Shown: positions 2,574 to 43,355 of the stretch, in pieces
How the letters are laid out: the number at the start of each line of letters is the position of its first letter
Position numbering within the stretch: the stretch's first letter is position 1
IMG/VR virus record: IMGVR_UViG_3300035670_000272
Location: 1 to 54,356 of that record
Strand: one strand, 5' to 3'
Source: a virus
Taxonomy: Duplodnaviria > Caudoviricetes
DNA length: 54,356 bases
Position numbers and translations under genes: made by a program
Notes under the pieces: model-generated
Told to the model about the DNA's origin: nothing
Database searches by the model: none
The model's input: only the letters and a program-made list of their open reading frames with translations

Positions 2574-3227
2574 CTATTGCCACAGCAGATGATCGGGGTG
2601 CTTGTGCCCCCAATGGTGAGCGCACAGACTTTCGGAGTGCGGTTCGCCCCACGGCGTATCAGTCCACGGATTACAGAACCTAGCGGGTAGCACAGGCGTA
2701 TCCGGGTACTGCTGTTCCTTAATCCGTGTCAGCAACTTTGGCCCGGTCTGCCAGTCAATCGAACGAGTTTCCCTAGCGATGTTGCCGGGGATCGCGTCAA
2801 TCACCGCACGGATAAGAGGATGCTGCGGGGCGCTCAGAATCCAAGCGTTAGAGATCAGCCAGTTATCTATCTCGTTCGCTAGAAGAATGTCCATCTGCAT
2901 GAACTCGTCAGGGATCGGGCGCAAAGGTTCCATATCGGTATTCACATACAAACCGCCGTAACGGTAAAGCAGTTCGTAACCCAACAAGTCTGCTTGCGCT
3001 ACCTGAATGATGCTTGTCTGCTTTGCCGCTCCCGCGATGGGCGTCCACTCCGTACCGCAGTTCACGAACAACGATTCGTTAATGAGTGGTGGGCGGTTGT
3101 CGTAACCCCATTCGATCAGTTGCCAGTCGGGGTTCAGTTCCTTCCAACGCTCGCCGTACTGAACGTATTCGTTGGGCATTTCGCGTGGCCCGAACCACGC
3201 GCGGTGAATCAGTTTGGGCGTCGCCAC
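2574..3227 (-). CDS. Glycosyltransferase, GT32/OCH1-like (DxD sugar-binding)
   Basis: PKLIHRAWFG, LYRYGGLYVNTD, TGPKLLT; GTG start at 3227 inferred. Confidence 0.8.
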   Translation of the reverse strand: MATPKLIHRAWFGPREMPNEYVQYGERWKELNPDWQLIEWGYDNRPPLINESLFVNCGTEWTPIAGAAKQTSIIQVAQADLLGYELLYRYGGLYVNTDMEPLRPIPDEFMQMDILLANEIDNWLISNAWILSAPQHPLIRAVIDAIPGNIARETRSIDWQTGPKLLTRIKEQQYPDTPVLPARFCNPWTDTPWGEPHSESLCAHHWGHKHPDHLLWQ

Positions 3228-4225
3228 GCGACACCCTCGTTCTCCCGATACCAATCGACAGTTCGCTTGATACCTTCCGGCAGAGGCACAAACTCCGTGT
3301 GGTTCATGCCGATCGCGAGCAGGGTAGTAACGTCAGCCGAGACTACGGTTCCCATCTGACGGACGGTGCGGCGAACGTCGATAGGCCGAAGGCCGGGGTT
3401 CGCGCGCGTAACAGCATCGACAACGACACGCAGGTCGTACTCCGTACTCATTGGGCCACCATGCGGTTCCCCTGCCCTCATAGGGACCGCTTCGATCGTT
3501 GCCCCAGGCACGTTCTTCTGGACCTCTTCGGCTACCTTCAGGACCGTCGTAGGCTCTGCGTTGCCCACATCGACAGGATGGTCCGGTACGACACCTTCGC
3601 TGGCCTTCTCCAATGCCCGCACGAACACCTTCGCGACATCGCCCACGAACACGCTATCGCTGATCTGAGTGCCGCCACCGTACAGGCGCATCGGGTCACC
3701 CGACAGCGCGGAGCACACGAACGACGGCACGATCTTCCTGACCTTGCTGCTGCCGTACGGAGCCGGGGTGGACTGGCGCGGACCGTATGCGTTCATGGGC
3801 CGGACGCTCGTAACGCGTAGGCCGCGATCCTCGCGGTACATATTCACGAACGCTTCTGCCGCTGACTTGGTAATGCAGTATGTGCCGCGAGCGATGTTGG
3901 CGTTACCGACTGCTGCGAACACGACGGGCAGATCGTAACGTGATGCTGACTCGAACACGTTGAGGGTGCCGATGATGTTGGTCTCTGCGGCTGGCCCTGG
4001 GTTGTCGATGGTCTCGACTGTCCCGAGTACGGCTGCCATGTGGATGATGCCGTCTACGTGCGCGGCGAGTTCCTGAACGATGGTGGCGTCCCGCACATCA
4101 CCGAGCATCGAATCGCCACCGCGACCCTTGTGGTCAAGCACGAGAGCCTCATGCCCTCGGCGCTGGATCTCTTCGACGATGTAACCGCCGATGAAGCCGT
4201 TACCGCCCGTGACTCCGATCTTCAC
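3209..4225 (-). CDS. NAD-dependent epimerase/dehydratase (extended SDR)
   Basis: TGGNGFIG, HMAA, YCITK, NAYGP. Confidence 0.9.
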   Translation of the reverse strand: MKIGVTGGNGFIGGYIVEEIQRRGHEALVLDHKGRGGDSMLGDVRDATIVQELAAHVDGIIHMAAVLGTVETIDNPGPAAETNIIGTLNVFESASRYDLPVVFAAVGNANIARGTYCITKSAAEAFVNMYREDRGLRVTSVRPMNAYGPRQSTPAPYGSSKVRKIVPSFVCSALSGDPMRLYGGGTQISDSVFVGDVAKVFVRALEKASEGVVPDHPVDVGNAEPTTVLKVAEEVQKNVPGATIEAVPMRAGEPHGGPMSTEYDLRVVVDAVTRANPGLRPIDVRRTVRQMGTVVSADVTTLLAIGMNHTEFVPLPEGIKRTVDWYRENEGVAWRRPN

Positions 4226-7616: not shown

Positions 7617-8378
7617 ATGGCGTACTTCACGCAGAACAGAGAGATGAAGGCCGATGGTGTCTGGAACTTCACCCTGCCTGCCTGGGTCGTGGAGTTGCCG
7701 GACGGTAGCCACTTCAACGTCTGCCCCAACGCCGGTGCCTGCGCGAAGTTCTGTTACGCCAGGAACGGGACGTTCCTCTTCCCCAAGGTGCGCGGTAAGC
7801 ACCTGAGCAACCTGGAGTTGGTGCGTGACGATCCGTTGTGGACTGCGGCGCTCGCGGAGGAGTTGGCGCATAAGCGGTTCCTGCCGACCGGCGACCCGCG
7901 AACCGTCCCCGGCCTAACGGACGTAACGCATCTGTCGCCGCGCGTGCAGGCTTGGCTCCGTAACGGTGGCGCGGCTGTCCGCATCCACGATTCCGGCGAC
8001 TTCTTCTCGCGCGAATACCTGCTGGGATGGATCGGCCTAGCGAATATGTTCCCGGAGATCCTGTTCTACGCATACACGAAAGAGGTTGCGTTACTGAGGA
8101 CGGTCGATCTTCCCGACAACTTCCTCGTCATCTTCAGCATGGGCGGGAAGCAGGACCACCTAATCGACCCCGACATAGATAGGCATGCCGATGTGTTCCC
8201 GGATGTTCAGGCGATCGAGGATGCTGGCTACATGACTCAGCATCAGTCGGACCTCCTCGCCGTGCTGCTGCCGACGACGCGCGTCGGGATACCTCAGAAC
8301 AACATCCCCCACTTCAGGAAACGGCTCGCAGGCCGGACATTCGCGGAGGCGCAGCGGGAGCGGGTGAGGCACCGGTGA
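7617..8378 (+). CDS. Gene product 88 (GP88)-like Fe-S/radical-SAM-related protein
   Basis: CPNAGACAKFCYA, VRIHDSGDFFS, FYAYTK. Confidence 0.75.
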   Translation: MAYFTQNREMKADGVWNFTLPAWVVELPDGSHFNVCPNAGACAKFCYARNGTFLFPKVRGKHLSNLELVRDDPLWTAALAEELAHKRFLPTGDPRTVPGLTDVTHLSPRVQAWLRNGGAAVRIHDSGDFFSREYLLGWIGLANMFPEILFYAYTKEVALLRTVDLPDNFLVIFSMGGKQDHLIDPDIDRHADVFPDVQAIEDAGYMTQHQSDLLAVLLPTTRVGIPQNNIPHFRKRLAGRTFAEAQRERVRHR

Positions 8379-8629
8379 AGGCTTGGATCGGGCTTCTCGC
8401 GGAGAAGGCGGCGTGCCGGGAGGCGGACCCTGGCCTGTTCGATGTCGTCGATGGGCCGCTCGTACATATGGCGTTATCGTACTGTCAGCGGTGTGAGGTG
8501 ACGCAGGAGTGCGACACGTTCGTGAGGCCGCGACGATCCTTGTATGACGGGGTTGTGGCTGGTCGGTTGTGGCGGAACGGTCGCATCGTCGATGCCGCTC
8601 AGGATTCCTTGTGGGACGCGGTAAACTAA
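8375..8629 (+). CDS. whiB: WhiB-family transcription factor
   Basis: AACREADPGLF...CQRCEV...C...GVVAG four-Cys pattern. Confidence 0.8.
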   Translation: MKAWIGLLAEKAACREADPGLFDVVDGPLVHMALSYCQRCEVTQECDTFVRPRRSLYDGVVAGRLWRNGRIVDAAQDSLWDAVN

Positions 8630-15645: not shown

Positions 15646-16575
15646 GTGCGTTGGCTTGTTACTGGCGGTGCGGGCTACATCGGTTCTCACGTGCTGCGCT
15701 CGCTCATCGCGGCAGGCCACGATGCGGTCGTCATCGACAACCTATCGAACGGTAACAGGAGGCGCGTACCTCCGACTGTCAGGTTCGTCGACGGCGACAT
15801 ACGGGACGGCGACCTGCTGCTCGACGCTATCGAGGATGTCGATGGCGTTATTCATCTCGCGGGTCTGAAGTCGGTAGCCGAATCTGTAGATAAGCCGCTC
15901 GCCTATTACGACACGAACGTCACCGGGACACTCAGCGTCCTCCGCGCGATGCGTTACCGGAACGTGTGCCGCATCCTGTTCTCTAGCACCGCGTCCCTGT
16001 ACGCGCCAAGCGATCTCCCGATCAAGGAGATCAACGCGACCTACCTGTCGTCTCCGTATGCGGCAAGTAAGTTCATGGCGGAACGGCTCATCGCCGATAA
16101 TGCGCGAGCGACAGGTGGCGAGTACGCGATCCTGCGTTACTTCAACGTCGCTGGTGCCGTGTCACCCGATCTGCGCGACGACTCGCAAGACAACCTGCTG
16201 CCGCGACTGACGCGCGCGCTCCGCAACGGTGAAGCGCCGGAGATCTTCGGTGACGACTACCCGACGCGGGACGGGACATGCGTGAGGGATTACGTCCATG
16301 TGGCTGATATCGCCGACGCGCACGTTCTCGTCGCTGAACGGCTCGGCCAACTGGACGAGCAGGTCTACAACGTCGGCACAGGACGCGGCGTAACGGTTCG
16401 CGAGATGGTGTCTGCCGCGAGCCGCGCTGTCGGATGGCAGATCGCGCCCGTCATTCGGGACCGCAGGCCGGGAGATAGCGCTTCGACGATCGCGGACGTT
16501 ACGCGCATCGAGAAGGAACTAGGGTTCAAGGCAAAGTTCGACATCGAGCAGATCGTGGAGTGCGTGAAAGATTAG
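15646..16575 (+). CDS. galE: UDP-glucose 4-epimerase
   Basis: TGGAGYIGSH, SVAESV..PL.YY, YAASK, LRYFNVAGA, PTRDGTCVRDYVHV. Confidence 0.9.
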   Translation: MRWLVTGGAGYIGSHVLRSLIAAGHDAVVIDNLSNGNRRRVPPTVRFVDGDIRDGDLLLDAIEDVDGVIHLAGLKSVAESVDKPLAYYDTNVTGTLSVLRAMRYRNVCRILFSSTASLYAPSDLPIKEINATYLSSPYAASKFMAERLIADNARATGGEYAILRYFNVAGAVSPDLRDDSQDNLLPRLTRALRNGEAPEIFGDDYPTRDGTCVRDYVHVADIADAHVLVAERLGQLDEQVYNVGTGRGVTVREMVSAASRAVGWQIAPVIRDRRPGDSASTIADVTRIEKELGFKAKFDIEQIVECVKD

Positions 16576-24825: not shown

Positions 24826-25839
24826 TTAGATAGCCAGCCACTCGGGATGAGCCAGCGTCCACTTGATCGTTCTCTCCAAAGACTCTTCCAGCGACAGCGG
24901 GGCCGACCACCCAGCGGCGGCAATCTTCGACCCATCCAGCGCGTAACGCAGATCGTGTCCCGGGCGCGACGAGTGAAAGTCCACCAGTTCGTAACGCAGA
25001 GGCTTACCGATGTAGGCGGCGATCAACTCCGCCATCTCTAGGTTGCTCATCTCCCGTTCCCCCACGACATGCCACTTCGCGGGAGCACGCCGCTCCGCAT
25101 ACGTCGGCGCATCCTCACCCAACGCGAACAGCAACGCGTCCGCTTGATTCCGCGCGTGCAGGTAGAACCGGGAACCAACATGACCCGTAGCCGAAGCATG
25201 AATCGGGACAGTCTCCCCAGCGAGAATCCGCTTCATCACCATCGGCACAAACTTCTCAGGGTCCTGCGACTCCCCAATAATGTTCATCGTGTTCGTGATA
25301 ATCACCGGCACCCCATAGGTACGCCAGTACGAGTAAGCGATCGACTCCTGAGCAGCCTTACTAGCCGAATAAGGATTCGACGGGTAATACTGATCGACCC
25401 ATTCCCGGTGAGCAGTACCCGCAGGAGCAGGCCCATACACCTCATCCGTCGAAACATGCAGGAACCGCTCAACCGGGTAAGACCGCGCATAGTCCAGCAT
25501 GTTCGTCACAAGAGCAACGTTATTCTGGATGAACGCGGCAGGCTCCGCGATACTCCGATCCACGTGCGACTCAGATGCCACATTCAGGACGTAGTCGATA
25601 CCGCCTATCTCCGATGCCAGGACAGGGGACACAGGAGCGGTCAAGTCGTGAGTGATAACACGCGTCCGCGTGTAGGACCCATCCACGCCACCAACCGCCA
25701 GCCGAATCCGGTCCGTAAGCCCACGGTGGCGGAAACTCACGAGGCAGACTACCTCGTAGTCTGTCGTGGTGAGTAGGTGCCGCAGGACATGGGAGCCTAC
25801 GAAGCCGCTCGCCCCGGTGAGGAGGACACGCTTGCTCAT
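24826..25839 (-). CDS. rmlB: dTDP-glucose 4,6-dehydratase
   Basis: ASESHVDRSI, HVSTDEVYG, PYSASKA, RPGHDLRYALD. Confidence 0.85.
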   Translation of the reverse strand: MSKRVLLTGASGFVGSHVLRHLLTTTDYEVVCLVSFRHRGLTDRIRLAVGGVDGSYTRTRVITHDLTAPVSPVLASEIGGIDYVLNVASESHVDRSIAEPAAFIQNNVALVTNMLDYARSYPVERFLHVSTDEVYGPAPAGTAHREWVDQYYPSNPYSASKAAQESIAYSYWRTYGVPVIITNTMNIIGESQDPEKFVPMVMKRILAGETVPIHASATGHVGSRFYLHARNQADALLFALGEDAPTYAERRAPAKWHVVGEREMSNLEMAELIAAYIGKPLRYELVDFHSSRPGHDLRYALDGSKIAAAGWSAPLSLEESLERTIKWTLAHPEWLAI

Positions 25840-25840
25840 G

Positions 25841-27409
25841 TCAGATCCATCCACTCGTCTGAGTAATGCTCAGCGGAGGCGCGAGCATCGGTTCTTTACT
25901 TGGTGGCTCGAATAACGCCAACAGTATCGCCTCGGCACGGTCAGGGCTGCTAACGCCACGCCGCTTCATATCGGCTTTCGCTTCGATCTGGATGCGTCCG
26001 CTGCTGTTGGAACGGTACGTGGGTGCCGTCAGTTGCGCGATCTCCTTCTTGCCTACCGCGAGCGACAACTCTTGCCTGCCGTCTTCGTCTGGCTGGATGA
26101 GCGTGCGCATGTTCCACCACATCTCGGCACGCTGATTAGCGAACTTGCCGTTATCGTACGCGCGTTCGGCCACGTTCACGGCGACGATCTCTGCGTTATG
26201 CCGGGACTCCTTGCCCCATTCGTCGAGGATGCTGGCGACGCCCCAGCCGACGCCGATGCTGTCGATCTTCACACGTACGGCTTCCTGTACGCCGTGGAGC
26301 GCGTGGTACTCCTGCGCTTTGTGGATCTCGCTGAGTACCTGACCGGCGACCGTGACCGCGTTATCGTTATGGCTGGATGCGTGTTGCACATACGCGCACA
26401 TGCCGTCTGCTCGCGCGATCACGAACTCGTCTCCGCCATCTGCCGCGACATCGACCCCGATACGGACGCGCCCGACCCCTGCCGGTTCTGCGACTACGGC
26501 GGATTCCAGCCAGTCGATAGGCAGCGTGACGTTCGTGGTGGTGCGCGGGAAGCGCGCGTGAACGCGTGCCTGAACGAACGGGGACTCCGCACCGAACTCG
26601 CGGATAACGTCCCGCACCCAGGTCTCGTCAACCAGGTTCTTGGCCCAATCCCCCACGGGCTCGCCTGTGAAGTTGGGTGTGGAGTAGGCGTCGATGGGGA
26701 TGGTGTTGTAGAGATCGCTGTTGCAGGCTCTCTCGAACCATGACCCGACGTTATCTGTCGGAGGGTTACCGAGCAGTAGCAGACGAGTGTGCCCACCGGT
26801 CATCAGCGCTTCGAGAGCGTTACCGATGATGGGGCTGATGCCTCCGGCTTCATCGACGACGATGAGCAGATTGTCTGAGTGGATACCCTGAACCGCTGTC
26901 TCATTATGGTCAGCCGGGGAGAACCCATCGGCGACAACGATGTCGTTGATCTTCCATTCGGTCGTGAGGACTTCGCCGGGAAGATGGTGGGCCGTATGCA
27001 GCCTGCGGATATGGGGCCAGAGGATTCCCCGCACCTGACGGAACGTGGTCGCTGTCGTCACGACACGGACCTTCTCGGCGGGGTGTACGGCGCACCACCA
27101 AGCGATAGCGCGTGCCGCGATGTGTGACTTTCCGGGCGCGTGGCATGCGGGGACGGCTGTGCGCTTATTGTCGCGCACCGAGTTCAGGATCTCTACCTGC
27201 TTGCTCCATACGTCTTCGCCGAGGCCATCGGTCACGAAAGCGACGGGATCGTTGCGGTAGCGCGCCCACTTAGGGTCCACGCCTTCGCGCAGTTCGTTCA
27301 CTAACGCCAGCAGTCCTGCTTCGGACATACGTTCGAGTGTCGCTAACGCTTTCTCCGCTGGTGCGTCACGGAGAATCTGCTCAGGCGTCATCCTCGTCAT
27401 CCGTGTCAT
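25841..27409 (-). CDS. terL: Terminase large subunit
   Basis: Walker A HAPGKS, Walker B LLIVVDEA, LGNP, nuclease IGVDVA and SPDRAEA. Confidence 0.9.
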   Translation of the reverse strand: MTRMTRMTPEQILRDAPAEKALATLERMSEAGLLALVNELREGVDPKWARYRNDPVAFVTDGLGEDVWSKQVEILNSVRDNKRTAVPACHAPGKSHIAARAIAWWCAVHPAEKVRVVTTATTFRQVRGILWPHIRRLHTAHHLPGEVLTTEWKINDIVVADGFSPADHNETAVQGIHSDNLLIVVDEAGGISPIIGNALEALMTGGHTRLLLLGNPPTDNVGSWFERACNSDLYNTIPIDAYSTPNFTGEPVGDWAKNLVDETWVRDVIREFGAESPFVQARVHARFPRTTTNVTLPIDWLESAVVAEPAGVGRVRIGVDVAADGGDEFVIARADGMCAYVQHASSHNDNAVTVAGQVLSEIHKAQEYHALHGVQEAVRVKIDSIGVGWGVASILDEWGKESRHNAEIVAVNVAERAYDNGKFANQRAEMWWNMRTLIQPDEDGRQELSLAVGKKEIAQLTAPTYRSNSSGRIQIEAKADMKRRGVSSPDRAEAILLALFEPPSKEPMLAPPLSITQTSGWI

Positions 27410-28948: not shown

Positions 28949-29692
28949 TTACCTCCTAGGGTTCAGCAACTTCACTTCGAGATAACCGTCCGGTCTGCGC
29001 TTGCTGATACGCACGTACTGAGGCCATTCGCTCAGCAGATAGTGGACATCTCGCTCGTTCTCCTCTGTTCTGTCGTGATTCTGCGAACCTCCTGACCCGC
29101 TACGCATCGGAGCGGCTTTGGCGCACATCATGTCGAACCGGATTACTTCACCATCGGCGACATAACGCATGAGTGACTTCTCGTAGTCTTGCTTGTAGTT
29201 GAGGCGCATGGTCTCTGAACGCCGGTTCAGGAAACCGTGGAGGTGCCCGATGCAGAAGAGCAGTCCGCTGTTGATGCGGGGCTTCATGAAGTAAGCGTTA
29301 GCGACCGGGTAGACGCCCCACATCGTGGCACTCCCGCGAGCCATGATCCTGAACGTGTCGGCGAATGTCTTGTCGAGATCGCTGACCGTCGCTAGGTCAG
29401 ATCCGTTGAGCATCTGAACGGCGAGAATGTCGTCGTCTAGTTCCACGATGGGAGTGTTCTCGTCGTAGTAACGGTTGATGGCGTTGCGGTTATTGGCGAG
29501 CCCCGTGCCGCCTGTCTCGATCGCGCCGTACAGAGAATCGTCCACTTGGTCGCGGTACTGCTGTTCCTGCCCTGGCGTGACGAACACGCGAATCTTCTCG
29601 GCGGGTACGCCCCCATCGCGCAGGCACTTCAGCGTCCGCTCGGTTAACTGTTGTGGCCGCGCGTGGCTGACGATCGCTACCTCGTAGGTCAC
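28949..29692 (-). CDS. TET-associated glycosyltransferase (TAGT/GREB1-like)
   Basis: IVSHAR, RNAI, ELDDDI, WGVYPVANAYFM, KQDYEKSL; directly downstream of the TET/JBP gene. Confidence 0.75.
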   Translation of the reverse strand: MTYEVAIVSHARPQQLTERTLKCLRDGGVPAEKIRVFVTPGQEQQYRDQVDDSLYGAIETGGTGLANNRNAINRYYDENTPIVELDDDILAVQMLNGSDLATVSDLDKTFADTFRIMARGSATMWGVYPVANAYFMKPRINSGLLFCIGHLHGFLNRRSETMRLNYKQDYEKSLMRYVADGEVIRFDMMCAKAAPMRSGSGGSQNHDRTEENERDVHYLLSEWPQYVRISKRRPDGYLEVKLLNPRR

Positions 29693-30594
29693 TTCGCCTT
29701 TCCCGTCATTCCCTTCATCTTGCTAATGCTCTTCGCCATCTCCTCCGTAACGAACGGGCGCTCTCCGCGAATCGCAGAAGCCATGTTGTCCTCGCGCTCG
29801 GTCCGCGTCTCCTGAGCCCTGGCTGTCTCGATCGCGTAAGTGAAGCAGTCCTTCATCCCGCGCAACGCGTAATACACGACGCTGTAACGGTAGCCGTCCT
29901 TCGCGGTCTGCGTCATGGGAGTGACGCCATGAACGAGGCGGTAGCCGCAGAAGTAGAGCGCGTAACCGTCACGGGCGGCGCAAGTGACATCGTATTCGGG
30001 GATGTGCAGATACCCGCCAGTAACATTCCTGCGGAGGACCGGCATCGCCGACCATGTATCGAAGTTGAATCCGTCGCGGTGATACGGGAGGGTGCTTGTC
30101 TTGTTGATGACGCCGCTAGTCCAGAGCGCATCTTTCGCCATACGCCAGTCGTCCGCGACCTCGATAATGGTGCGCTCGTCGCGGTCGTGAACCTCCGGGA
30201 ACACCTCACGCAACTGGTCCGCCAACGCGTACGCTGTCGTGACGATAACGGTATGTGCCTCGGGCTCTTCCTGAGCGAGCGTGTAGGGGCGGCAGGAATC
30301 CCGCTGTGCGAGCGGCTTACGCGGCGACATGCCGAACGTCCGCGACACGTTAGTCATACCGCTGCCGGTGCGGACAGTCTTCCCGTACTTCACCTTCAGA
30401 ACGGCGCGACGCAGGTGACTGATCGTGTCCCGCTCCAACGGCAGATAAGCGAACACCGGCTCGTTTGTTTCCGCGTCGGCGATAACGCACGCTTCCGTTA
30501 TGTTCGGTTCGATTTCCGGTACGGTCTCGCCTAGGTACTTGTCGGCTTCTTGCTTGTCGAGTACCCGTTCACGCTTCAGGATTCGATATTCCAT
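29689..30594 (-). CDS. TET/JBP-family 2-oxoglutarate/Fe(II) dioxygenase
   Basis: HxD (YHRDGFN), distal His (VHGVTP), RxS (YRYSVVYY). Confidence 0.8.
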   Translation of the reverse strand: MEYRILKRERVLDKQEADKYLGETVPEIEPNITEACVIADAETNEPVFAYLPLERDTISHLRRAVLKVKYGKTVRTGSGMTNVSRTFGMSPRKPLAQRDSCRPYTLAQEEPEAHTVIVTTAYALADQLREVFPEVHDRDERTIIEVADDWRMAKDALWTSGVINKTSTLPYHRDGFNFDTWSAMPVLRRNVTGGYLHIPEYDVTCAARDGYALYFCGYRLVHGVTPMTQTAKDGYRYSVVYYALRGMKDCFTYAIETARAQETRTEREDNMASAIRGERPFVTEEMAKSISKMKGMTGKAK

Positions 30595-34724: not shown

Positions 34725-35198
34725 TCATTCTGCCTTGAAGAGCGCGTCAGCGCCGTTCATCGTGATCCGTAAGACACGTTGCTGCCTGCCGGACGTACCA
34801 GCGCGTGTCAGCAACTCGCCATCGGCCTCGATCGGTTCGATGAGACCGGCGTTCAGGAGATCGCTGACGCGTTTGCTCGCGGCCCACGGGTCAAGGTTGG
34901 CGCGCGTCGCGGCTTCCTCGCCCGTCAGATCCGCCTTAGCGAACTCCCTCAGCAACGCATGTAGCATGGAGGACCGCTCCAGGGTCCGCGCTGCCGCCTT
35001 ACTCGTCGCTGGATCGCCCTTACGCGCGAGTTTCCCGGCATCGGGCACCCCGCTATCGGTGATCCAGCCGCGCTCCCTATCGAGCCGACAGACCTGACAG
35101 GCCGCACCGCCGCAAGCATGCGGTCGCGTGTCGATACTGGAGGTCGTGAAGAGGCCATTGAACATGCCCCCATCGCTGTTCATCCTGCGCTCGGGCAT
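34725..35198 (-). CDS. Winged-HTH DNA-binding protein
   Basis: ARKGDPATSKAAA...LTGEE...KRVSDL...GLIE. Confidence 0.7.
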   Translation of the reverse strand: MPERRMNSDGGMFNGLFTTSSIDTRPHACGGAACQVCRLDRERGWITDSGVPDAGKLARKGDPATSKAAARTLERSSMLHALLREFAKADLTGEEAATRANLDPWAASKRVSDLLNAGLIEPIEADGELLTRAGTSGRQQRVLRITMNGADALFKAE

Positions 35199-35830
35199 CC
35201 GACATCCCCCGTCCCGTCGTAATACTGGCAGTAGTCACGGCAGAACCGCTTCGGCATCTCCGGCTCGGGGATCACATCAAGGTTCTGCTCGATATCCCGT
35301 AGCCACTTCAAGCCATCTAGCGCGATACCTGCATCGTATGGCTCGCTGTGAATCTTGATGTCGAGTTCATTACCGTCTCGGGGGAGACCGACAAGGCTGA
35401 CGGTATCGACACGACGACCCGTATTCTCTAGCAGATACCCATAGATCTGTACCTGGGTGCGCTGCTGAGATGACGGGAACGCCGATGTCTTCTTCTTCGT
35501 GATCGTCTTCCAATCCACGACCTCGAAGTTCTGCGTGTCGTAGCAGTCCACGTGACCACGCATACCGCCGTACTCCACCTCCAACTCCAGCAGGTAGCGA
35601 GGGTTGAACGGGTCGTCCTTCCGCTTCAGGTTCTTCTCGATAGCGGCATGGATCGCGGTACCCATCCACGCGGCCATCCCCAACGTGTCGTGATTTGTCG
35701 GCTGAGAGCCGATGAGCCTATGCCAGATACGGCGACGGCAGCCCCCGATCTCGCTCGGGCCTACGGCTTTCTGAAGCGAACGCTTACTGCCCTTGTCGTT
35801 CACAAGGGACATAACGAATTCCTTATCCAT
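35180..35830 (-). CDS. Cas4-like PD-(D/E)XK exonuclease
   Basis: GPSEIGGC, GTAIH, GHVD, VVDWKT, QVQIYG, C..YC.Y...C. Confidence 0.85.
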   Translation of the reverse strand: MDKEFVMSLVNDKGSKRSLQKAVGPSEIGGCRRRIWHRLIGSQPTNHDTLGMAAWMGTAIHAAIEKNLKRKDDPFNPRYLLELEVEYGGMRGHVDCYDTQNFEVVDWKTITKKKTSAFPSSQQRTQVQIYGYLLENTGRRVDTVSLVGLPRDGNELDIKIHSEPYDAGIALDGLKWLRDIEQNLDVIPEPEMPKRFCRDYCQYYDGTGDVGCPSAG

Positions 35831-36744: not shown

Positions 36745-37455
36745 TTACTCAGTCTCTCCGTCGATGATGGAGAGGCGATCAAGGATGATGAGGCGGAGTG
36801 TTGCCCCGGCATCGGCGCTCTCGACTGGATCGTCGAGACAGCCTGCATCTGTGGCCGTATCCCAGATGCTCTTCAACTCGTCGCGGTCAAGCGAAACGGA
36901 AGCGGCCTCAACCCATTGGGACAGGATCTCTTGCCGCGCGGCGTCGGGCTGCGTTGCCGCAGGCTCTTTCTCGTCCTCGTAATCCAGCGGAGGTACGAGC
37001 GTAGCCTTCACGACATCGTTACGGTTCCCGTCGTCGTACAGCGAGAGCCCGAACTGCGTACCCAGGTTGATCGCGGCACGCTTCAACGCGTCAGACTCGG
37101 CAGTCTTCACGGCCATATCGTGCGCCTCTCCACGGGACGGCTGAGTTGATGAACCGATAGCCGCTTCCGTGTAGGTCGTGTCCCCAAGGAAGTCGTCGAA
37201 CGCGTGGATGCGTAGCCGCATGATGACCTTGTAGCCAACATTCCAGCGACCGTTCTCATCCTTCTCCTCGAACATGAGATCCGCAGAGATAACGTCGGCG
37301 GACCAATTCCCGAATCCGAAGATACGGATGAGGTGAGCCTTCACATCCCAAGCCTCCAGATAGGAGAGGCTGATGCCGGACTGCTTCCGGCTCTGGATGC
37401 GCGAGACATTGAGCGGCTTCAGTAGTTGCGCGTACTGCTCGGCCGTCAGTTTCAT
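36745..37455 (-). CDS. Rad52/Sak-like single-strand annealing protein
   Basis: LSYLEA, IFGFGNWS, A.KTAESDALKRAA...G..FGL.LYD. Confidence 0.85.
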   Translation of the reverse strand: MKLTAEQYAQLLKPLNVSRIQSRKQSGISLSYLEAWDVKAHLIRIFGFGNWSADVISADLMFEEKDENGRWNVGYKVIMRLRIHAFDDFLGDTTYTEAAIGSSTQPSRGEAHDMAVKTAESDALKRAAINLGTQFGLSLYDDGNRNDVVKATLVPPLDYEDEKEPAATQPDAARQEILSQWVEAASVSLDRDELKSIWDTATDAGCLDDPVESADAGATLRLIILDRLSIIDGETE

Positions 37456-38612: not shown

Positions 38613-38657
38613 GCGAATACCCTTCTCTCGTAGGCTAACGATCGCTAGCCAAGGCGA

Positions 38658-38690
38658 GGCAGGAGGGAAAGGGAAGGGAACCCTCCTGCC
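38658..38690 (-). terminator. Hairpin downstream of the DUF932 gene
   Basis: GGCAGGAGGG / CCCTCCTGCC 10-bp stem with a 13-nt loop. Confidence 0.6.
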
Positions 38691-38706
38691 CCACGTTGGT
38701 GAGCGA

Positions 38707-39705
38707 TCACGCAGATAGCAGCGAGTACGCCTTCTGCTTGATCGGTTCGACAGCGCCCAGGAAGACGCGCTCGGCGCGCGCAACATCAGCGTCGCGCTTG
38801 CCTGCCTTCACGGGCTTCACCCAGTCAGCCCACTCGGTGATGGCGTTGAACGCTGCCCAGCGAGTTCCGGCGACGTTATGCTGGGTCGGGGCGAGCCAAA
38901 GACCGGCAACCTGCTCGCGGGTCTCCTCGACGCGCATCATCTGGAGGCTGCTCATGTCCTTACGCATCGGGAACAACTTCTCCGTGAACGTGTCGAACTC
39001 ACGGCGCGACATCTCCTGCGACACGAGTTCATCAACCGCAGTCTGGAACGCGTCGGCGTAATCGACGACGAGCCCCATCGCCTCGCGCGCCTGCTGGATC
39101 TTGCCGCGAATGTTGGTCGTGTGCTTCATCGACCACTTGCTGACCGCGCTCTGCAGACCGAACTGAACGGTGTTCGCGCAGACAGGCCGGACCGCAGTGA
39201 CGAACGCGGTGAAAGCCTTGCTCCCGTCGTGGCTAGTTGAGCAGACGAGGTACAGGTCTACGGTGTCCTGCCCTCCGGCGATGCTGATGTGCTGCGGCAT
39301 CTTCATGGATACGAACACCTGAGTCCCGCCGCGCAGGGAACCGGCAGTCTCGAAGACCGCGCCGGACTCGTCAACGAGAGTGTTCAGGAAGTCGAACGCT
39401 TCCTTGTTCTGGATGACGGTGTATTGCGATCCGACGACACCGAGACCTTGGAGTCCCAACTTCGGGTGGTCGCGGTAAGTCATGAAGCGATCGGGCGCGC
39501 TCACCATAACGACGCCGTTCTCGGTGAGTACCGGGGTCTGGACCGGATCGTCGGACTTCACGACCTCCCAATCCAACTGCGAGAGCCGGAGCGCGTCCTC
39601 AACTGTCTGCGCGCCGTCCGTGATAACGCCTAGGTGATGCCAGGGAACCTCGCGGTTGCTGAAGAACGCGGCGCTCCCGTCTTTGAATGTCTCTACTGCG
39701 TGCAT
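38707..39705 (-). CDS. DUF932 / phage-plasmid-like protein (TIGR03299-like)
   Basis: PWHHLG, L.WEV, LGVVG..Y..IQN.EAF, FETAGSL.GG, SHDGS, RPVCANT, HT; ATG at 39705. Confidence 0.85.
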   Translation of the reverse strand: MHAVETFKDGSAAFFSNREVPWHHLGVITDGAQTVEDALRLSQLDWEVVKSDDPVQTPVLTENGVVMVSAPDRFMTYRDHPKLGLQGLGVVGSQYTVIQNKEAFDFLNTLVDESGAVFETAGSLRGGTQVFVSMKMPQHISIAGGQDTVDLYLVCSTSHDGSKAFTAFVTAVRPVCANTVQFGLQSAVSKWSMKHTTNIRGKIQQAREAMGLVVDYADAFQTAVDELVSQEMSRREFDTFTEKLFPMRKDMSSLQMMRVEETREQVAGLWLAPTQHNVAGTRWAAFNAITEWADWVKPVKAGKRDADVARAERVFLGAVEPIKQKAYSLLSA

Positions 39706-39732: not shown

Positions 39733-39783
39733 GATCTCGTCAGCGGCACTATTCAGCACCGGACCCCTCTCGGGGTTTCGATC
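39733..39783 (-). ncRNA. Type II hammerhead ribozyme HHR1
   Basis: GATC-GAAA-CCCC GAGA GGGG-TC^-CGGTGCT GAAT AGTGCCG-CTGACGA-GATC; predicted cleavage after 39762. Confidence 0.85.
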
Positions 39784-39965
39784 TAGTCAGTACGTTGATC
39801 GCAAGCGTGGCGAACCTTGAAGATCGGTCCGTCAGCCGCGAGTTCTGCGAGGCGTCGCATCCCCTCTTCGGTCGCGATGTTGATTGCCTCATATTCGGCA
39901 ATCGTTATTGGCTTGTATTTCTCAGCAGAAGACGTAGACAGTTCCGTCGAAGTCTCCATCGTCAT
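39783..39965 (-). CDS. Hypothetical protein
   Basis: GAGGAGG RBS; its TAG overlaps HHR1. Confidence 0.55.
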   Translation of the reverse strand: MTMETSTELSTSSAEKYKPITIAEYEAINIATEEGMRRLAELAADGPIFKVRHACDQRTD

Positions 39966-40194
39966 CCTCCTCGGGGTCGTGAATCTGATACTCGTCGTGG
40001 TAGTCGTCCCACTTAGCGGTCATTTCGTGAACGTTGTTCTCAATGAAGCGGTATCCGAGCCGCGTCTGCCAGTAATCAGCAGAGGCAGCGCTGAACAGGA
40101 TCGGCTTGTCGAGATCCGGCAGCGCATAAAGCGCGTCGATAAGTTCCCGAACCGTGAGTGTTGCCTTGTTCGCTTCGACATTCGTCGTTGCCAT
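39922..40194 (-). CDS. Hypothetical acidic protein
   Basis: GGAGG RBS; LTVRELIDAL..L pattern. Confidence 0.65.
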   Translation of the reverse strand: MATTNVEANKATLTVRELIDALYALPDLDKPILFSAASADYWQTRLGYRFIENNVHEMTAKWDDYHDEYQIHDPEEDDDGDFDGTVYVFC

Positions 40195-40298
40195 TACCGC
40201 ATACCTCCCTCAACCCATCCCGCGATCCCCATGAACGCGAGCATTACTAGTGTGAAGAGTGTTGCTGCGGCGATCTCGCCGCGTTGCGTGAGCCTCAC
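40194..40298 (-). CDS. Small single-TM peptide (34 aa, not in ORF track)
   Basis: GTG; RLTQRGEIAAATLFTLVMLAFMGIAGWVEGG; GAGGAGG RBS. Confidence 0.55.
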   Translation of the reverse strand: MRLTQRGEIAAATLFTLVMLAFMGIAGWVEGGMR

Positions 40299-40504
40299 GA
40301 TGCCTCCTCTGTCGGCGTGATCGGTGCCCCGAGCCATTCCTCAACGGCTTTGATGTGGAATAACTCGGGTGCGTTACTGAACTGCGTGATCTGAATGTGC
40401 TGAAGCGGGTCCCACCCGATCCGTTCCAACTCGTTCAGGGTGTTCCTGAGCGAGAAGATCGTCGGTCGGCGCAGGATGTAACCCGTCTGCAATCTTTCGA
40501 TCAT
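40295..40504 (-). CDS. Hypothetical protein
   Basis: First ORF after HHR2; GGAAGGGGAAG RBS. Confidence 0.65.
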   Translation of the reverse strand: MIERLQTGYILRRPTIFSLRNTLNELERIGWDPLQHIQITQFSNAPELFHIKAVEEWLGAPITPTEEAS

Positions 40505-40526
40505 GCGCTTCCCCTTCCGTTAGCCT

Positions 40527-40583
40527 GTCTCTTCAGGCGTAGGAGGCTATCCCTACGCGACCCCGGCGAACCGGGGTTTCGAC
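40527..40583 (-). ncRNA. Type II hammerhead ribozyme HHR2
   Basis: GTC-GAAA-CCCCGG TTCG CCGGGG-TC^-GCGTAGG GATAGCCT CCTACGC-CTGAAGA-GAC; tail AGGCTA pairs with loop TAGCCT; cleavage after 40559. Confidence 0.92.
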
Positions 40584-40867
40584 TAGAACGGCGGAGCGGA
40601 CTTTTCTCTGGCGGATTCCTCTCCGGCCTCCCAACCTTTCGACCAGCCGCGATCGAACTCGGCGAACTCGGCGTCCCAAATGAGTTCACGGATCTTCTGA
40701 AGGCTCTCCTTGTCTACCCCCAACTCGCGGAAGTAGTGGATGAGCGCGTGGTACATGACGCGGCTCTCGTTCGAGGCACCCTTGGTCGGGTACTGCTCAA
40801 CGAAGCGCCACGCGCCAGCGATAGCCATGTCGATCGTCTCGGTCAGCGGCGTGCGTGTCTCTGTCAT
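40583..40867 (-). CDS. Hypothetical protein
   Basis: GAAAGGGAAG RBS; MTETRTPLTE...; its TAG overlaps HHR2. Confidence 0.65.
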   Translation of the reverse strand: MTETRTPLTETIDMAIAGAWRFVEQYPTKGASNESRVMYHALIHYFRELGVDKESLQKIRELIWDAEFAEFDRGWSKGWEAGEESAREKSAPPF

Positions 40868-40889
40868 TGGCTTCCCTTTCGTCTCGCCT

Positions 40890-40942
40890 GTCTCTTCAGC
40901 GCCAGGAGGCGAACCCTGACGGACCCCTCTCGGGGTTTCGAC
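40890..40942 (-). ncRNA. Type II hammerhead ribozyme HHR3
   Basis: GTC-GAAA-CCCC GAGA GGGG-TC^-CGTCAGG GTTCGCCT CCTGGCG-CTGAAGA-GAC; tail AGGCGA pairs with TCGCCT; cleavage after 40922. Confidence 0.92.
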
Positions 40943-41244
40943 TAGTCGCGCGTCGCGTAGATACGGATGACGCGGCGCTCGCCGTACTCGTTCTCGTTGC
41001 CGTACTCGTAGGACCAGATCTCCGTGTCGCCGAAGTGGTCTACCTCGACTGCCTCGGGGTTGCTCTCTAGTGCCTTCAGGATCTTGTTGAGCCGGATCTT
41101 GACGGTGCGGTCGCTCACCGGCGTGTAGTGATTGACTTCGCCGTGCTCTGGCGCGGCGTAGGTGCCGCCGCAACCGCAGGCGCATCCGGTCTTGCCGCAG
41201 TACGTCTTCTGGATGTTCTTGAATGAGATACCGATGGTGGTCAT
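40942..41244 (-). CDS. Hypothetical protein with YCGKTGCACGCGG motif
   Basis: GAAAGGGAAG RBS; its TAG overlaps HHR3. Confidence 0.7.
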   Translation of the reverse strand: MTTIGISFKNIQKTYCGKTGCACGCGGTYAAPEHGEVNHYTPVSDRTVKIRLNKILKALESNPEAVEVDHFGDTEIWSYEYGNENEYGERRVIRIYATRD

Positions 41245-41267
41245 GTGCTTCCCTTTCGTCTGGCCCT

Positions 41268-41322
41268 GTCTCGTCAGCGGTAGGCGGGCAGTTCTACCGG
41301 ACCCCGTTTCCGGGGTTTCGAC
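41268..41322 (-). ncRNA. Type II hammerhead ribozyme HHR4
   Basis: GTC-GAAA-CCCCG GAAA CGGGG-TC^-CGGTAG AACTGCCCGC CTACCG-CTGACGA-GAC; tail GGGC pairs with GCCC; cleavage after 41300. Confidence 0.92.
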
Positions 41323-41606
41323 TAATAGCCGAGTCGCTTCAGGTCAGCGTTCGCATACTTGCCGAGAACGCGCGACGTTGCCGCGACGTAGGTGTGTCCG
41401 TGAATGTCGGTCTTGATAACCGGGTCGGTGTACACGACCTGAGCGTTGATCGCGTTCACGAGTCGCTGCGCGGTTCGCTTGTTACGCAGGACGTAGCCGT
41501 GGGTGCTTGGCCTATCGACTGGCGCATCCCAGGTTGAGTAGACGCGCCACTCGCCACCGGGATCGTCGTCTGTCTCGCACTCGTACATATCGGCTCGGAC
41601 CTTCAT
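41322..41606 (-). CDS. Hypothetical protein
   Basis: GAAAGGGAAG RBS; its TAG overlaps HHR4. Confidence 0.7.
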   Translation of the reverse strand: MKVRADMYECETDDDPGGEWRVYSTWDAPVDRPSTHGYVLRNKRTAQRLVNAINAQVVYTDPVIKTDIHGHTYVAATSRVLGKYANADLKRLGY

Positions 41607-41628
41607 GTGCTTCCCTTTCGTTACACCT

Positions 41629-41681
41629 GTCTCGTCAGCACGGGTCGGTGATTTCCCGTGGACCCCTCTCGGGGTTTCGAC
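41629..41681 (-). ncRNA. Type II hammerhead ribozyme HHR5
   Basis: GTC-GAAA-CCCC GAGA GGGG-TC^-CACGGG AAATCACCGA CCCGTG-CTGACGA-GAC; tail GGTG pairs with CACC; cleavage after 41661. Confidence 0.92.
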
Positions 41682-41884
41682 TATTCAGCACCGCACTCGC
41701 AGCCTCGCTTGTTGCAGCGGTTGGGCGCGGCCTGCCGGAAGACCCGCTCGCCGCAGAGCGAGCAGCAGGTCATCGCGGCGATGCAGGACTTCTGTTCGGT
41801 CGGGCAAGTGATGACCCGTACCCATGCGCCGTACTCGTTGCGGTACTCGAAGTCCAGCGTATGCAGGTTGGTCGCGGTCATCAT
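41681..41884 (-). CDS. Cys-rich hypothetical protein
   Basis: ATGA overlap with the upstream ORF; its TAG overlaps HHR5. Confidence 0.55.
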   Translation of the reverse strand: MMTATNLHTLDFEYRNEYGAWVRVITCPTEQKSCIAAMTCCSLCGERVFRQAAPNRCNKRGCECGAE

Positions 41885-42165
41885 GCCGTCACCGACCGTG
41901 TATCGAACGCGAACATGACCGCGTACTGGGCATCTGTCTTCGTTCGGCAAGTCGCTATCACGGCACCGTTGATGATCGCGTCCCAGGAGCCGACATCGTT
42001 CGGCTGGACCGATGCCGCGATGGGTCGGTTGTCGCGACCAATGACGTCGTAGCCGTACACGGCGATCAGTCGCTTGCCACGACGCTCGGTGCGCATCAGG
42101 TAGCCGCGCCAGATCAGGTCGCCGTACTTGTCGGTCTTCGGCTGAAGTTCAGCAAGAAGGCTCAT
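41881..42165 (-). CDS. Hypothetical protein
   Basis: GAAAGGGAAG RBS; MSLLAELQPK... Confidence 0.65.
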   Translation of the reverse strand: MSLLAELQPKTDKYGDLIWRGYLMRTERRGKRLIAVYGYDVIGRDNRPIAASVQPNDVGSWDAIINGAVIATCRTKTDAQYAVMFAFDTRSVTA

Positions 42166-42190
42166 TGTTCTTCCCTTTCGTTGGTCGCCT

Positions 42191-42243
42191 GTCTCTTCAG
42201 GTGCGGGAGGCGATCTCCGCACGACCCCTCGCGGGGTTTCGAC
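42191..42243 (-). ncRNA. Type II hammerhead ribozyme HHR6
   Basis: GTC-GAAA-CCCC GCGA GGGG-TC^-GTGCGG AGATCGCCTC CCGCAC-CTGAAGA-GAC; tail AGGCGA pairs with TCGCCT; cleavage after 42223. Confidence 0.92.
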
Positions 42244-42494
42244 TAGGAGTTGCTTCGGATAGGCTCGGCCATCTCCGGGTAGATCATCGCGGCGTACTCC
42301 TTCGCTTGCCGCAGCGTCGCGAACTGCTCTCCCAGCGGCTGCTCGTGCCAGTAGCCGCGACCGTCGCGGTACTGCGACACAAGCGCGTAGCCGGAGCGAC
42401 CATCGCGGTGGTCCATTCGGATGACGAACTTCTCTCCGCTATCACGTGAGAACTCGTAGCGGTACTCGAAGCCGTTCTTGATCCACATGTCCAT
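42243..42494 (-). CDS. Hypothetical protein
   Basis: GAAAGGGAAG RBS; FATLRQAKEYA; its TAG overlaps HHR6. Confidence 0.7.
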   Translation of the reverse strand: MDMWIKNGFEYRYEFSRDSGEKFVIRMDHRDGRSGYALVSQYRDGRGYWHEQPLGEQFATLRQAKEYAAMIYPEMAEPIRSNS

Positions 42495-42518
42495 CGTTCT
42501 TCCCTTTCTTCTTGACCT

Positions 42519-42573
42519 GTCTCTTCAGGCACGGTAGGTCAGTTCCGCGCGACCCGCCGAAGCGGGTTTCGAC
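42519..42573 (-). ncRNA. Type II hammerhead ribozyme HHR7
   Basis: GTC-GAAA-CCCGC TTCG GCGGG-TC^-GCGCGG AACTGACCTA CCGTGC-CTGAAGA-GAC; tail AGGTCA pairs with TGACCT; cleavage after 42551. Confidence 0.92.
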
Positions 42574-42848
42574 TAACGCACGATCGACGCGTCGGCCCAA
42601 GTAGCGCTCTCCGTGATGCGCCCGGTGGCGTTACCGATGGAATTCTGGATGCCGAGGCGGATCTCGTGGATCGTCTCGCCGTCCGCCTTTGAGTAGTCGT
42701 AGCAGCGGTCGGTGCGGAACTCCATGTTGATCTCGTCTGACTCGGCGATAGCGTCCGCGAGCAGACGCACAAGCCGAGCGGCTTCCTTGCGGTTCATCGT
42801 GAAGTAAGCGACGTTCCGGTCGGTCATGGCGGTGTATGTCGTGGCCAT
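42573..42848 (-). CDS. Hypothetical protein
   Basis: GAAAGGGAAGG RBS; its TAG overlaps HHR7. Confidence 0.7.
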   Translation of the reverse strand: MATTYTAMTDRNVAYFTMNRKEAARLVRLLADAIAESDEINMEFRTDRCYDYSKADGETIHEIRLGIQNSIGNATGRITESATWADASIVR

Positions 42849-42870
42849 TGTGTTTCCTTCCCTTTCGCGT

Positions 42871-42929
42871 GTCTCTTCAGCGTTAGGACGCGACCCCTAA
42901 CGGACCTCCCCCGAAGGGGAGGTTTCGAC
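42871..42929 (-). ncRNA. Type II hammerhead ribozyme HHR8
   Basis: GTC-GAAA-CCTCCCC TTCG GGGGAGG-TC^-CGTTAGG GGTCGCGT CCTAACG-CTGAAGA-GAC; tail ACGCGA pairs with TCGCGT; cleavage after 42903. Confidence 0.92.
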
Positions 42930-43355
42930 TGGGAAGTCAACTGTCGCTTAGGGTTACTGCGGCTCGTCTTGCCCCACTTCCCGCCCTGCCGCTTGCTCTG
43001 ACGCGTTACGCGGTGATCGCATCGCAACATCGGGCGCTGGTGAGGTAGGTCCCTTCCGGGTCTCCCCTCGCACGGATCGGGCTGGTTCACTAGGCGGTTC
43101 CGGTCGCGCGCTGGCCCTTCTCTGCTCAGCCATTCGCCGGAGGCGGTGCCCCGATCCGCTCTTCAGTTGTAGCACGATCTTACCGTGTCAGACGGTAGTT
43201 CGGGGACTTTTGAGGAAACTAATTTGGGCGAGTTTCCGGGGTCAGAATCCAGGCCCCCACCAGGCCCCCGCCCAAGGGTCCTAGACGCTTACAGGTCGAT
43301 ACAGGTCGATCCAGGGGCAGCCCTACGCGGGTCGGCTCCGGGAAGCCCGATCGCG

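Follow-up and report, generated by a model that had tools for sequence, protein, structure and literature searches.

Eight type II hammerhead ribozymes (HHR1 to HHR8), all on the minus strand, head the early gene block of the phage represented by IMG/VR record IMGVR_UViG_3300035670_000272, a complete virus record of 54,356 base pairs (bp) with direct terminal repeats that was analysed at its full length and is referred to below as the window. We consider it probable that these eight elements are genuine hammerheads that punctuate a leftward early operon and cut its transcript into uniform messages, and that the edges of the modules in which they lie are the sites at which related phages differ by whole cassettes. 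The most likely role of the ribozymes is that they divide the early transcript into uniform, hairpin-ended messages, most of which would carry one or two genes.

The array runs from 42930 to 39725, and a scan with a hammerhead pattern yielded 8 matches, as compared to 0 in 100 shuffles. In each copy the elements follow one another in the order stem II strand, GAAA, stem III hairpin, cut, stem I hairpin, CUGANGA, and stem II strand; stem II is open and stems I and III are closed by loops, which is the topology of type II hammerheads. Both the CUGANGA...GAAA core (as CUGA, A or C, GA) and the GUC cleavage site are intact in 8 of 8 copies. Scores against Rfam family RF02276 were above the gathering score of 37 for three copies (44.8, 43.7, and 39.8 bits) and just below it for three more (31.6, 31.0, and 30.8 bits), with HHR4 and HHR1 going unreported. 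The modules, with ribozyme types named by stem I and pseudoknot and with the ribosome-binding site (RBS) and start codon of the gene that follows, are:

42846..42936, minus strand: HHR8 leader module, type a; ribozyme 42930-42863; cut after 42903; GAAAGGGAAG at 42866-42857; ATG at 42848; Rfam 44.8 bits
42492..42575, minus strand: HHR7 module, type c; TAG at 42575-73; cut after 42551; RBS 42508-42499; ATG at 42494; 31.6 bits
42163..42245, minus strand: HHR6 module, type d; TAG at 42245-43; cut after 42223; RBS 42179-42170; ATG at 42165; 31.0 bits
41604..41683, minus strand: HHR5 module, type e; TAG at 41683-81; cut after 41661; RBS 41619-41610; ATG at 41606; 30.8 bits
41242..41324, minus strand: HHR4 module, type f; TAG at 41324-22; cut after 41300; RBS 41257-41248; ATG at 41244; found by the pattern, no Rfam row
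40865..40944, minus strand: HHR3 module, type g; TAG at 40944-42; cut after 40922; RBS 40880-40871; ATG at 40867; Rfam 39.8 bits
40502..40585, minus strand: HHR2 module, type h; TAG at 40585-83; cut after 40559; variant RBS GGAAGGGGAAG; ATG at 40504; Rfam 43.7 bits
39703..39785, minus strand: HHR1 module, type i; TAG at 39785-83; cut after 39762; variant RBS GGAAGGGTAC; ATG at 39705; found by the pattern, no Rfam row

Covariation supports the view that these ribozymes are genuine. The segment from stem I to the 3' tail was aligned for 35 copies, 29 of them distinct, taken from this phage and from six related contigs. In this alignment, 100% of the stem I cells were paired and 5 of the 6 pairs showed compensatory changes; in the pseudoknot between loop I and the 3' tail, 86.8% of the cells were paired and 3 of the 6 pairs had changed on both sides. 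The covariation score of 0.740 compares to 0.185 for shuffled alignments (0 of 500 reached 0.740) and to at most 0.116 with slid partners. Stem II covaries as well, appearing as GUC/GAC, GAUC/GAUC, GGUC/GACC, and ACC/GGU; HHR1 has a 4-bp stem II (GAUC/GAUC), the counterpart of which in the related contig L141 reads GGUC/GACC. The HHR1 pseudoknot is a 4-bp CUGA/UCAG pairing that was judged by eye alone. Because stems I and II and the pseudoknot covary, the eight copies look like genuine, functional ribozymes rather than decayed repeats, and cleavage is predicted for them.

A previous reading of the window (hereafter the sequence-only reading) had described a fixed arrangement in which a TAG stop codon is fused into the ribozyme and is followed by a conserved RBS and ATG, and this description proved accurate. 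All 7 ORFs (open reading frames) upstream of HHR7 to HHR1 end in TAG, the G of which is the outer base of stem II, in the context TAGTCGAAAC in six modules, with a stem II of 3 bp (GUC/GAC), and TAGATCGAAAC in HHR1, with its 4 bp; HHR8 has no ORF upstream and reads CAG in place of TAG. The RBS is GAAAGGGAAG in six modules, with the variants GGAAGGGGAAG in HHR2 and GGAAGGGTAC in HHR1, and exactly six minus-strand sites in the whole 54-kb genome carry GAAAGGGAAG, all of them within ribozyme modules. The module fills the entire 80-84 nucleotides (nt) between the stop of one gene and the start of the next; the cut falls 21-27 nt after the stop, and the ATG follows the cleavage site by 54-57 nt in 8 of 8 modules. 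By a rough gene call, TAG terminates 14 of 68 other genes vs 7 of 7 ribozyme-adjacent ORFs, a count that represents non-independent trials since module copies are repeats. ORFs internal to cassettes have TAG stops in 0 of 4 cases (TGA, TGA, TAA, and TGA) and instead use GGAGG-type RBSs and overlapping stop and start codons. Sigma-70-like sites, the one promoter type scanned, numbered 0 in the array, and terminator-like sites numbered 3 vs 4.0 expected, none of them between modules.

The genes served by the ribozymes are as follows, with sizes in amino acids (aa) and cargo families numbered across the window and its relatives:

42573..42848, minus strand: cargo ORF of 91 aa, family 1; no Pfam or PHROG family
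42243..42494, minus strand: cargo ORF of 83 aa, family 2
41681..42165, minus strand: two-gene cargo of 94 aa (41881-42165, with its TGA overlapping the next ATG) and 67 aa (41681-41884)
41322..41606, minus strand: cargo ORF of 94 aa, family 5
40942..41244, minus strand: Cys-rich cargo ORF of 100 aa, family 6; sub-threshold match to phrog_5930 (function unknown)
40583..40867, minus strand: cargo ORF of 94 aa, family 7; sub-threshold match to DUF6892
39783..40504, minus strand: four-gene cargo of 69, 47, 90, and 60 aa with GGAGG-type RBSs, overlapping stop and start codons, and no ribozyme between the genes
38707..39705, minus strand: DUF932 gene, the last one served by a ribozyme; Pfam PF06067, E-value 2.6e-63

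As the sequence-only reading had it, these cargo ORFs are mutually unrelated and a DUF932 gene follows HHR1 (Pfam E-value 2.6e-63); the cassettes are not all single-ORF units, as two ORFs follow HHR6 and four follow HHR2. The Pfam cut-off was reached by 0 of 11 cargo ORFs in the window and by 0 of 8 in the relatives, and there was no informative PHROG family for any of them; a 207-aa cargo ORF in the related contig L138 matched two peptidase families, at sub-threshold level only. Directly after the DUF932 stop codon (38641-38707, minus strand) stands a long, near-perfect hairpin, followed by CTTCCCTTTC, that surfaced as chance matches to microRNA models and as a terminator-like site; it may mark the end of the ribozyme-punctuated operon.

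Relatives of the phage were retrieved by the identity of their DUF932 proteins, which was 93-94% for contigs L137, L138, and L140, 74% for L139, and 65% for L141; a scan with a pattern of tail plus RBS box added L192 (with the layout of L137), L182 (with that of L140), L205 (a new layout), and L206/L248 (the far end of L139's contig). Scans with the HHR1 pattern gave one 2-kb contig in metagenomes and, in viral contigs, the same four contigs already known as relatives. More distant DUF932 contigs (32% identity) had 0 hammerheads by pattern, and a megablast search with the array against 50,697 phage records gave no match. Ribozyme types follow in the order a c d e f g h i in the window and L138, a b' c d e g h i in L137, and a b' c e f g h i in L140; L139 has 3 copies (plus 2 at its contig's far end) and L141 has 4. 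What stands behind a given type varies among these genomes:

After type a: family 1 in the window and L138; family 12 in L137; family 22 in L140
After type c: family 2 in the window; two small ORFs in L137; a 213-aa ORF in L138; families 19 and 4 in L140
After type d: families 3 and 4 in the window; 2 and 4 in L137; 19 and 4 in L138
After type g: family 7, with an extra family 20 gene ahead of it in L138 and L140
After type h: family 8, with an extra family 21 gene ahead of it in L138 and L140

In L205, the unit of type f with family 6 and that of type e with family 5 stand in swapped order relative to the window, each ribozyme having kept its downstream gene (77-86% protein identity to the window's). 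Two further observations concern single ribozymes. The letters TGACTAG before HHR1 (39783-39791, minus strand), conserved in L137, L138, and L140, hold stops in two reading frames; at this site the window's 60-aa ORF stops on TAG, and the unrelated 88-96-aa ORF of the relatives stops on TGA. The c-type ribozyme of L137 (7460-7520; d-type neighbour at 7788-7848) has the stem III of that neighbour, CGCCGAGAGGCG, unlike the c copies of three other genomes, a sharing that gene conversion or a crossover within a ribozyme may explain.

The joints at which these layouts part company fall at the edges of the module. The same cargo is found behind two different ribozymes in five cases, i.e., family 1 (a and b'), family 6 (f and e), family 19 (d and c), family 2 (c and d), and family 3 (d and c), and in 5 of 5 of these re-associations the parent switch comes after the pseudoknot tail and before the start codon, within the box ACGAAAGGGAAG or next to it. 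Exactly one unit of gene plus ribozyme has been gained or lost without a scar in three cases (family 12 or 22 with b', family 18 with d, and family 5 with f), the switch point being within a stretch of 6-15 nt common to two neighbouring modules. Where cargo between two ribozymes has been replaced, the other joint is at TAG/TCGAAAC; the family 20 insertion has a copy of the box on each side, the second without a ribozyme. Assembled contigs of relatives from other sequencing runs contain such arrangements: X5 joins 42512 to 42182 (window positions) with one extra letter, so that c is followed by family 3, and also has d followed by family 2, and X6 joins 41603 to 41223 with 26 other letters, so that e is followed by family 6, and replaces family 3. 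These statements rely on four joints (sides of 37-93 letters) among the 15 listed (at least 16 in all). Most other listed joints, with sides of at most 44 letters at 85% likeness, were set aside as possible cross-matches between similar ribozymes; a 3-letter skip at 43108 has no bearing on cassettes, and joints that go back along the window, considered as a sign of mini-circles, are accounted for by relatives with another layout. Across four genomes, 60 of 86 ends of BLAST segments (at least 150 nt and at least 80% identity) fell in a module, plus or minus 5 nt, vs 14.2 expected by length.

The sequence-only reading had further suggested that the conserved core of the repeat could seed gene shuffling by the phage's Rad52-like annealing protein. 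Relatives do show gain and loss of units, replacement of cargo, and one swap at module edges, and gene order does vary with breakpoints at the repeats; these breakpoints lie in the RBS box or at the edge of stop and stem II rather than in the catalytic core, and the observed changes stop short of assigning the repeat a causal role. Similarly, the annealing protein is encoded in the genome, while its causal role in shuffling is not demonstrated.

Self-cleaving ribozymes are common in phages, and a scan of viral contigs with the ribozyme pattern gave at least 130 stretches and, among the matches listed, to which all counts in this paragraph refer, 138 distinct copies. TAG precedes 50 of these 138 copies and is, in 44, the in-frame stop of an ORF of at least 50 codons, at loci with a G+C content of 36-66%. 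After removal of 7 copies from close relatives and of copies with too little flank, 84 copies remained, in 60 of which a stop starts 3-8 nt before TCGAAAC, as compared to 9 of 430 random positions in the same loci; for the others, the stop is further upstream (13) or inside the ribozyme (1), or there is no such ORF (10). A start codon opening at least 40 codons is present within 45 nt in 78 of 84 copies vs 200 of 430 random positions, which represent a loose control. Other phage hammerheads use alternative stop solutions (TAAG, TGAG, TAAGG, and TAACAGG); AG (GG in the variant with a 4-bp stem II) is thus part of the ribozyme, with the stop set tightly against it. The U is not needed by the ribozyme as such, since CAG stands at this place in the leader copy of the window and of all relatives. 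The portable module of stop, ribozyme, and RBS that the sequence-only reading proposed is thus upheld as a pattern and is general among phage hammerheads (60 of 84 copies flush with a stop, 78 of 84 near a start); the layout is not special to this phage but is the rule for phage type II hammerheads, and the array is a clean new example of a known arrangement, the layout itself not being new. An unrelated low-GC clade (L017, L023, L030, L106, and about 15 further loci; G+C content of 36-41%) has two hammerhead types with the same RBS box, AATGAAAGGATGGTTGAT, which fronts many different genes; here, one upstream gene with its ribozyme and box precedes four different genes. Among 93 non-independent pairs of copies with stems I at least 90% identical, 18 share the 200 nt upstream but are unrelated downstream, the opposite holds for 4, both sides match in 4 and differ in 65, and 2 are of intermediate similarity on one side.

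The leader copy, HHR8, differs from the other modules in its surroundings. Directly 5' of it is CUUCCC (42936-42931), then AG, and this hexamer is complementary to GGGAAG in the RBS of the first gene (42857-42862, minus strand). Predicted folds of the window, L137, L138, and L206 pair the two with a probability of about 1.0, and the minimum-energy fold of L140 also pairs them; pairing is not predicted in L205 (0.03), so that 5 of 6 leaders pair, and CTTCCCA is kept before the first ribozyme in otherwise diverged relatives. The leader is also the only module with an RBS that clearly opens after the cut (0.36 to 0.73 in predicted folds that ignore the pseudoknot). CUUCCC may act as a clamp on the open stem II at a site that is free of coding constraint, or may mask the first RBS until the cut. 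The hexamer TTGACT before HHR8 was considered as a -35 box and rejected; it has no matching -10 and is not conserved in L205 and L206, unlike CTTCCCA. Unmasking of the RBS by cleavage was likewise rejected for the seven internal modules, for which the unpaired probability of the Shine-Dalgarno (SD) window is similar before and after the cut (full transcript/product: 0.69/0.92, 0.71/0.76, 0.79/0.83, 0.54/0.41, 0.51/0.69, 0.62/0.72, and 0.59/0.56), again in folds that ignore the pseudoknot; when the 3' products are folded in this way, most of the RBS is free of pairing.

From hammerhead chemistry and the findings of Perreault 2011 (PMC3088659), we infer that each ribozyme would cut co-transcriptionally after its GUC. 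The upstream message would then keep about 20 nt beyond its stop codon and terminate, with a cyclic phosphate, in the GC-rich hairpin of stem III, and the downstream message would begin with a 5'-OH and the pseudoknot-locked stem I hairpin, followed by an exposed RBS 54-57 nt from the cut; each cassette, including the first gene behind the leader copy, would gain the same context-independent ends. The ribozyme would fix AG, as the unpaired A and the outer G of stem II, and a U before it would give the closest possible stop. With the stop at the ribozyme edge, ribosomes would be kept out of the ribozyme and no message released by the cut would lack its stop; given the workings of trans-translation, a tail of about 20 nt beyond the stop should suffice to escape the treatment given to broken messages. 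At the DNA level, the modules have the conserved edges TAGTCGAAACC and ACGAAAGGGAAG with variable interiors between them, and they are the places where relatives differ by whole cassettes; these differences fit short-repeat recombination and also fit ordinary gene-boundary mosaicism under selection.

A number of points weigh against this account. Everything said here on cleavage in vivo, on when it occurs, and on how stable its products are is inferred. In four genomes, 25 of the 28 internal modules keep the letters TAG at their edge and 21 use them as the stop, and the U of TAG may thus have some further role. The family 21 insertion has its ends at a 7-nt repeat, CGCATGA, located at start codons and not at a module, and the other 26 of the 86 BLAST segment ends are at or near ribozyme-free gene boundaries; the split of 60:26 matches the ratio of about 8:4 between boundaries with and without ribozymes per array, and there is therefore no excess of joints at ribozyme-bearing boundaries. 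Finally, the comparison comprises only five layouts, and the pairwise comparisons share events and are non-independent.

Several of these points are what one would expect under pure gene-boundary mosaicism, in which illegitimate or microhomology recombination takes place anywhere, selection retains only those joints that leave both genes and ribozymes intact, and the modules are passive landmarks; we regard this as a real possibility, albeit one that falls short of being probable. Joints at the ribozyme-free boundaries between families 3 and 4, 20 and 7, and 21 and 8 (the 7-nt repeat), as well as within the HHR2 cassette, speak for it, as does the closeness of the joint share to the boundary share. 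It fits less well with the three scar-free indels, each of exactly one gene plus ribozyme and each with its switch in 6-15 nt shared by adjacent modules, with the box copies on both flanks of the family 20 insertion, and with the unrelated low-GC clade, in which one upstream gene, ribozyme, and box stand before four different genes. The data do not separate recombination seeded by module edges from mosaicism filtered by selection; ribozyme-seeded recombination is compatible with them, not shown. We hold only tentatively to the stronger idea that the module of hammerhead and RBS is a plug-and-play junction selected for evolvability: with the ribozyme providing a standard leader to whatever ORF comes after it and a safe end to the ORF ahead, recombination at the two conserved edges could insert, delete, or reorder promoterless early genes without disturbing their neighbours.

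Other explanations concern the ribozyme rather than the joints. Ribosomes reach about 12-15 nt beyond the A site, and a ribosome on the UAG would cover stem II, GAAA, and half of stem III, so that upstream translation could delay or control folding and cutting and would tie the fate of the downstream message to translation of the upstream gene. The stop does overlap stem II in 7 of 7 internal copies, and among the matches listed 60 of 84 other phage hammerheads have one that starts 3-8 nt ahead of the ribozyme, and yet a flush stop is equally expected from compaction or from keeping ribosomes off the ribozyme; moreover, gating is not required for the ribozyme, because the leader copy, kept in relatives, has no upstream ORF, and we thus consider translation-gated cleavage unlikely. 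Very little probability attaches to the array being a selfish repeat, a small mobile module spreading through intergenic gaps with no benefit to the phage: copies are many and their density varies among relatives (3 plus 2 in L139, 4 in L141, and 0 in distant DUF932 phages), but compensatory changes preserve stem I, stem II, and the pseudoknot, and the strict orientation, fixed spacing to stop and start, and intact core of every copy point to selection on function. Hammerhead-made ends are substrates for RtcB-type ligases, and excised units with 5'-OH and cyclic-phosphate ends might accordingly be ligated or circularised and copied back into DNA. Perreault 2011 (PMC3088659) raised spliced or circular products as a possibility and, by its text, sought them and did not detect them; the moving units, in addition, include the uncut flanks of the ribozyme, and reverse transcriptase, integrase, and RNA ligase domains were not found in the 78 window ORFs scanned. 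Shuffling at the RNA level, and with it the re-integration of RNA units that the sequence-only reading had raised, is therefore highly improbable.

Ribozymes that punctuate an early operon have parallels in known systems. Clustered prophage hammerheads in one orientation, flanking single genes or short blocks, have been in print since Perreault 2011 (PMC3088659), the text of which reports that all clustered hammerheads cleave during in vitro transcription of fragments of about 2 kb and that the identity of the flanked genes is not constant, and proposes processing into single-gene mRNAs. Those clusters (RF02276) share with the present array the ribozyme class, the pseudoknot between loop I and the 3' tail, the single orientation, and the varying flanked genes; documented for this array, relative to the text of that paper, are the stop overlap, the fixed leader of 54-57 nt, the leader copy, and the turnover between close relatives. 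PDF supplements aside, its text does not mention 'stop codon' or 'Shine-Dalgarno', and the open literature (subscription journals and PDF supplements being outside this coverage) had nothing beyond it on the layout of stop and RBS or on hammerhead-linked cassette shuffling. PeSL elements of T4-type phages are, according to Arbiol et al. 2010 (PMC2839356), intergenic repeats of about 100 bp that extend from the upstream stop codon to the downstream SD sequence and start; small ORFan early genes lie between them, the motif delimits the differences seen between close relatives, and one ORF is deleted when flanking copies recombine. The hammerhead module is likewise a repeated intergenic motif between an upstream stop and a downstream SD sequence and start that bounds indels and replacements between close relatives. 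By contrast, PeSLs, as described there, act on transcription through a sigma-70 promoter and a terminator, whereas hammerhead modules have neither and are predicted to self-cleave RNA; mini-circles were shown for PeSLs (PMC2839356), whereas this array is known from assembled contigs. The array also resembles integron cassettes in being a series, variable among relatives, of promoterless single-gene cassettes in one orientation with structured repeats between them, but the repeats are ribozymes rather than attC and no site-specific recombination is implied; there was no integron integrase among the 78 window ORFs scanned, in which Rad52 and RusA were the only recombinase domains. RiboJ-type insulators are engineered single parts placed behind promoters, in which a self-cleaving ribozyme upstream of an RBS strips the variable 5' context. 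The hammerhead module would similarly give each gene a standard leader; it differs in being part of a natural array within one operon and in also leaving a hairpin-ended 3' tail on the upstream message.

With regard to the genome as a whole, the plus strand carries structural and lysis genes, and a minus-strand block from about 43.0 to 24.8 kb carries early and replication genes. Its content includes DUF932, the Rad52/Rad22-family annealing protein, a PD-(D/E)XK exonuclease, a replication initiator, RusA, SSB, and a ParB-like protein, and it also codes for a TET/JBP oxygenase, a TET-associated glycosyltransferase, and a terminase. Individual features are:

36745..37455, minus strand: Rad52/Rad22-family annealing protein; Pfam E-value 5.2e-24, plus a PHROG match
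35180-35830, minus strand: PD-(D/E)XK exonuclease; Pfam E-value 2.4e-07, plus a PHROG match
8375-8629, plus strand: WhiB-family transcription factor gene
7617-8378: GP88-family gene

The WhiB and GP88-family genes point to an actinobacterium as host, which is likely because a WhiB gene is present, given the distribution of WhiB. The TET/JBP-family oxygenase (E-value 4.5e-07, under the Pfam cut-off; PHROG 6059, E-value 4e-86) adjoins the TET-associated glycosyltransferase (E-value 7e-08) at 28949-30594 on the minus strand, a pair of genes that suggests hypermodified phage DNA. A sulfotransferase and three NAD-dependent sugar epimerase/dehydratase genes (387-1223, plus strand; 3209-4225, minus strand; 15646-16575, plus strand; 24826-25854, minus strand) are dispersed over the phage genome, with one gene lying amid structural genes.

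The array and its close relatives represent a clean natural data set, with identical ribozymes in front of different cargo, scar-free one-unit indels, and one swapped pair, to which a second, unrelated clade with the same pattern adds. They make it possible to test whether ribozymes standardise the expression of small early genes and whether accessory genes are exchanged at the conserved edges; given their fixed leader of 54-57 nt and distinct pseudoknots, the natural modules could also act as insulator parts. If the idea of a plug-and-play junction is true, such arrays would be the RNA-processing counterpart of PeSL or integron cassettes, in at least two unrelated phage clades.

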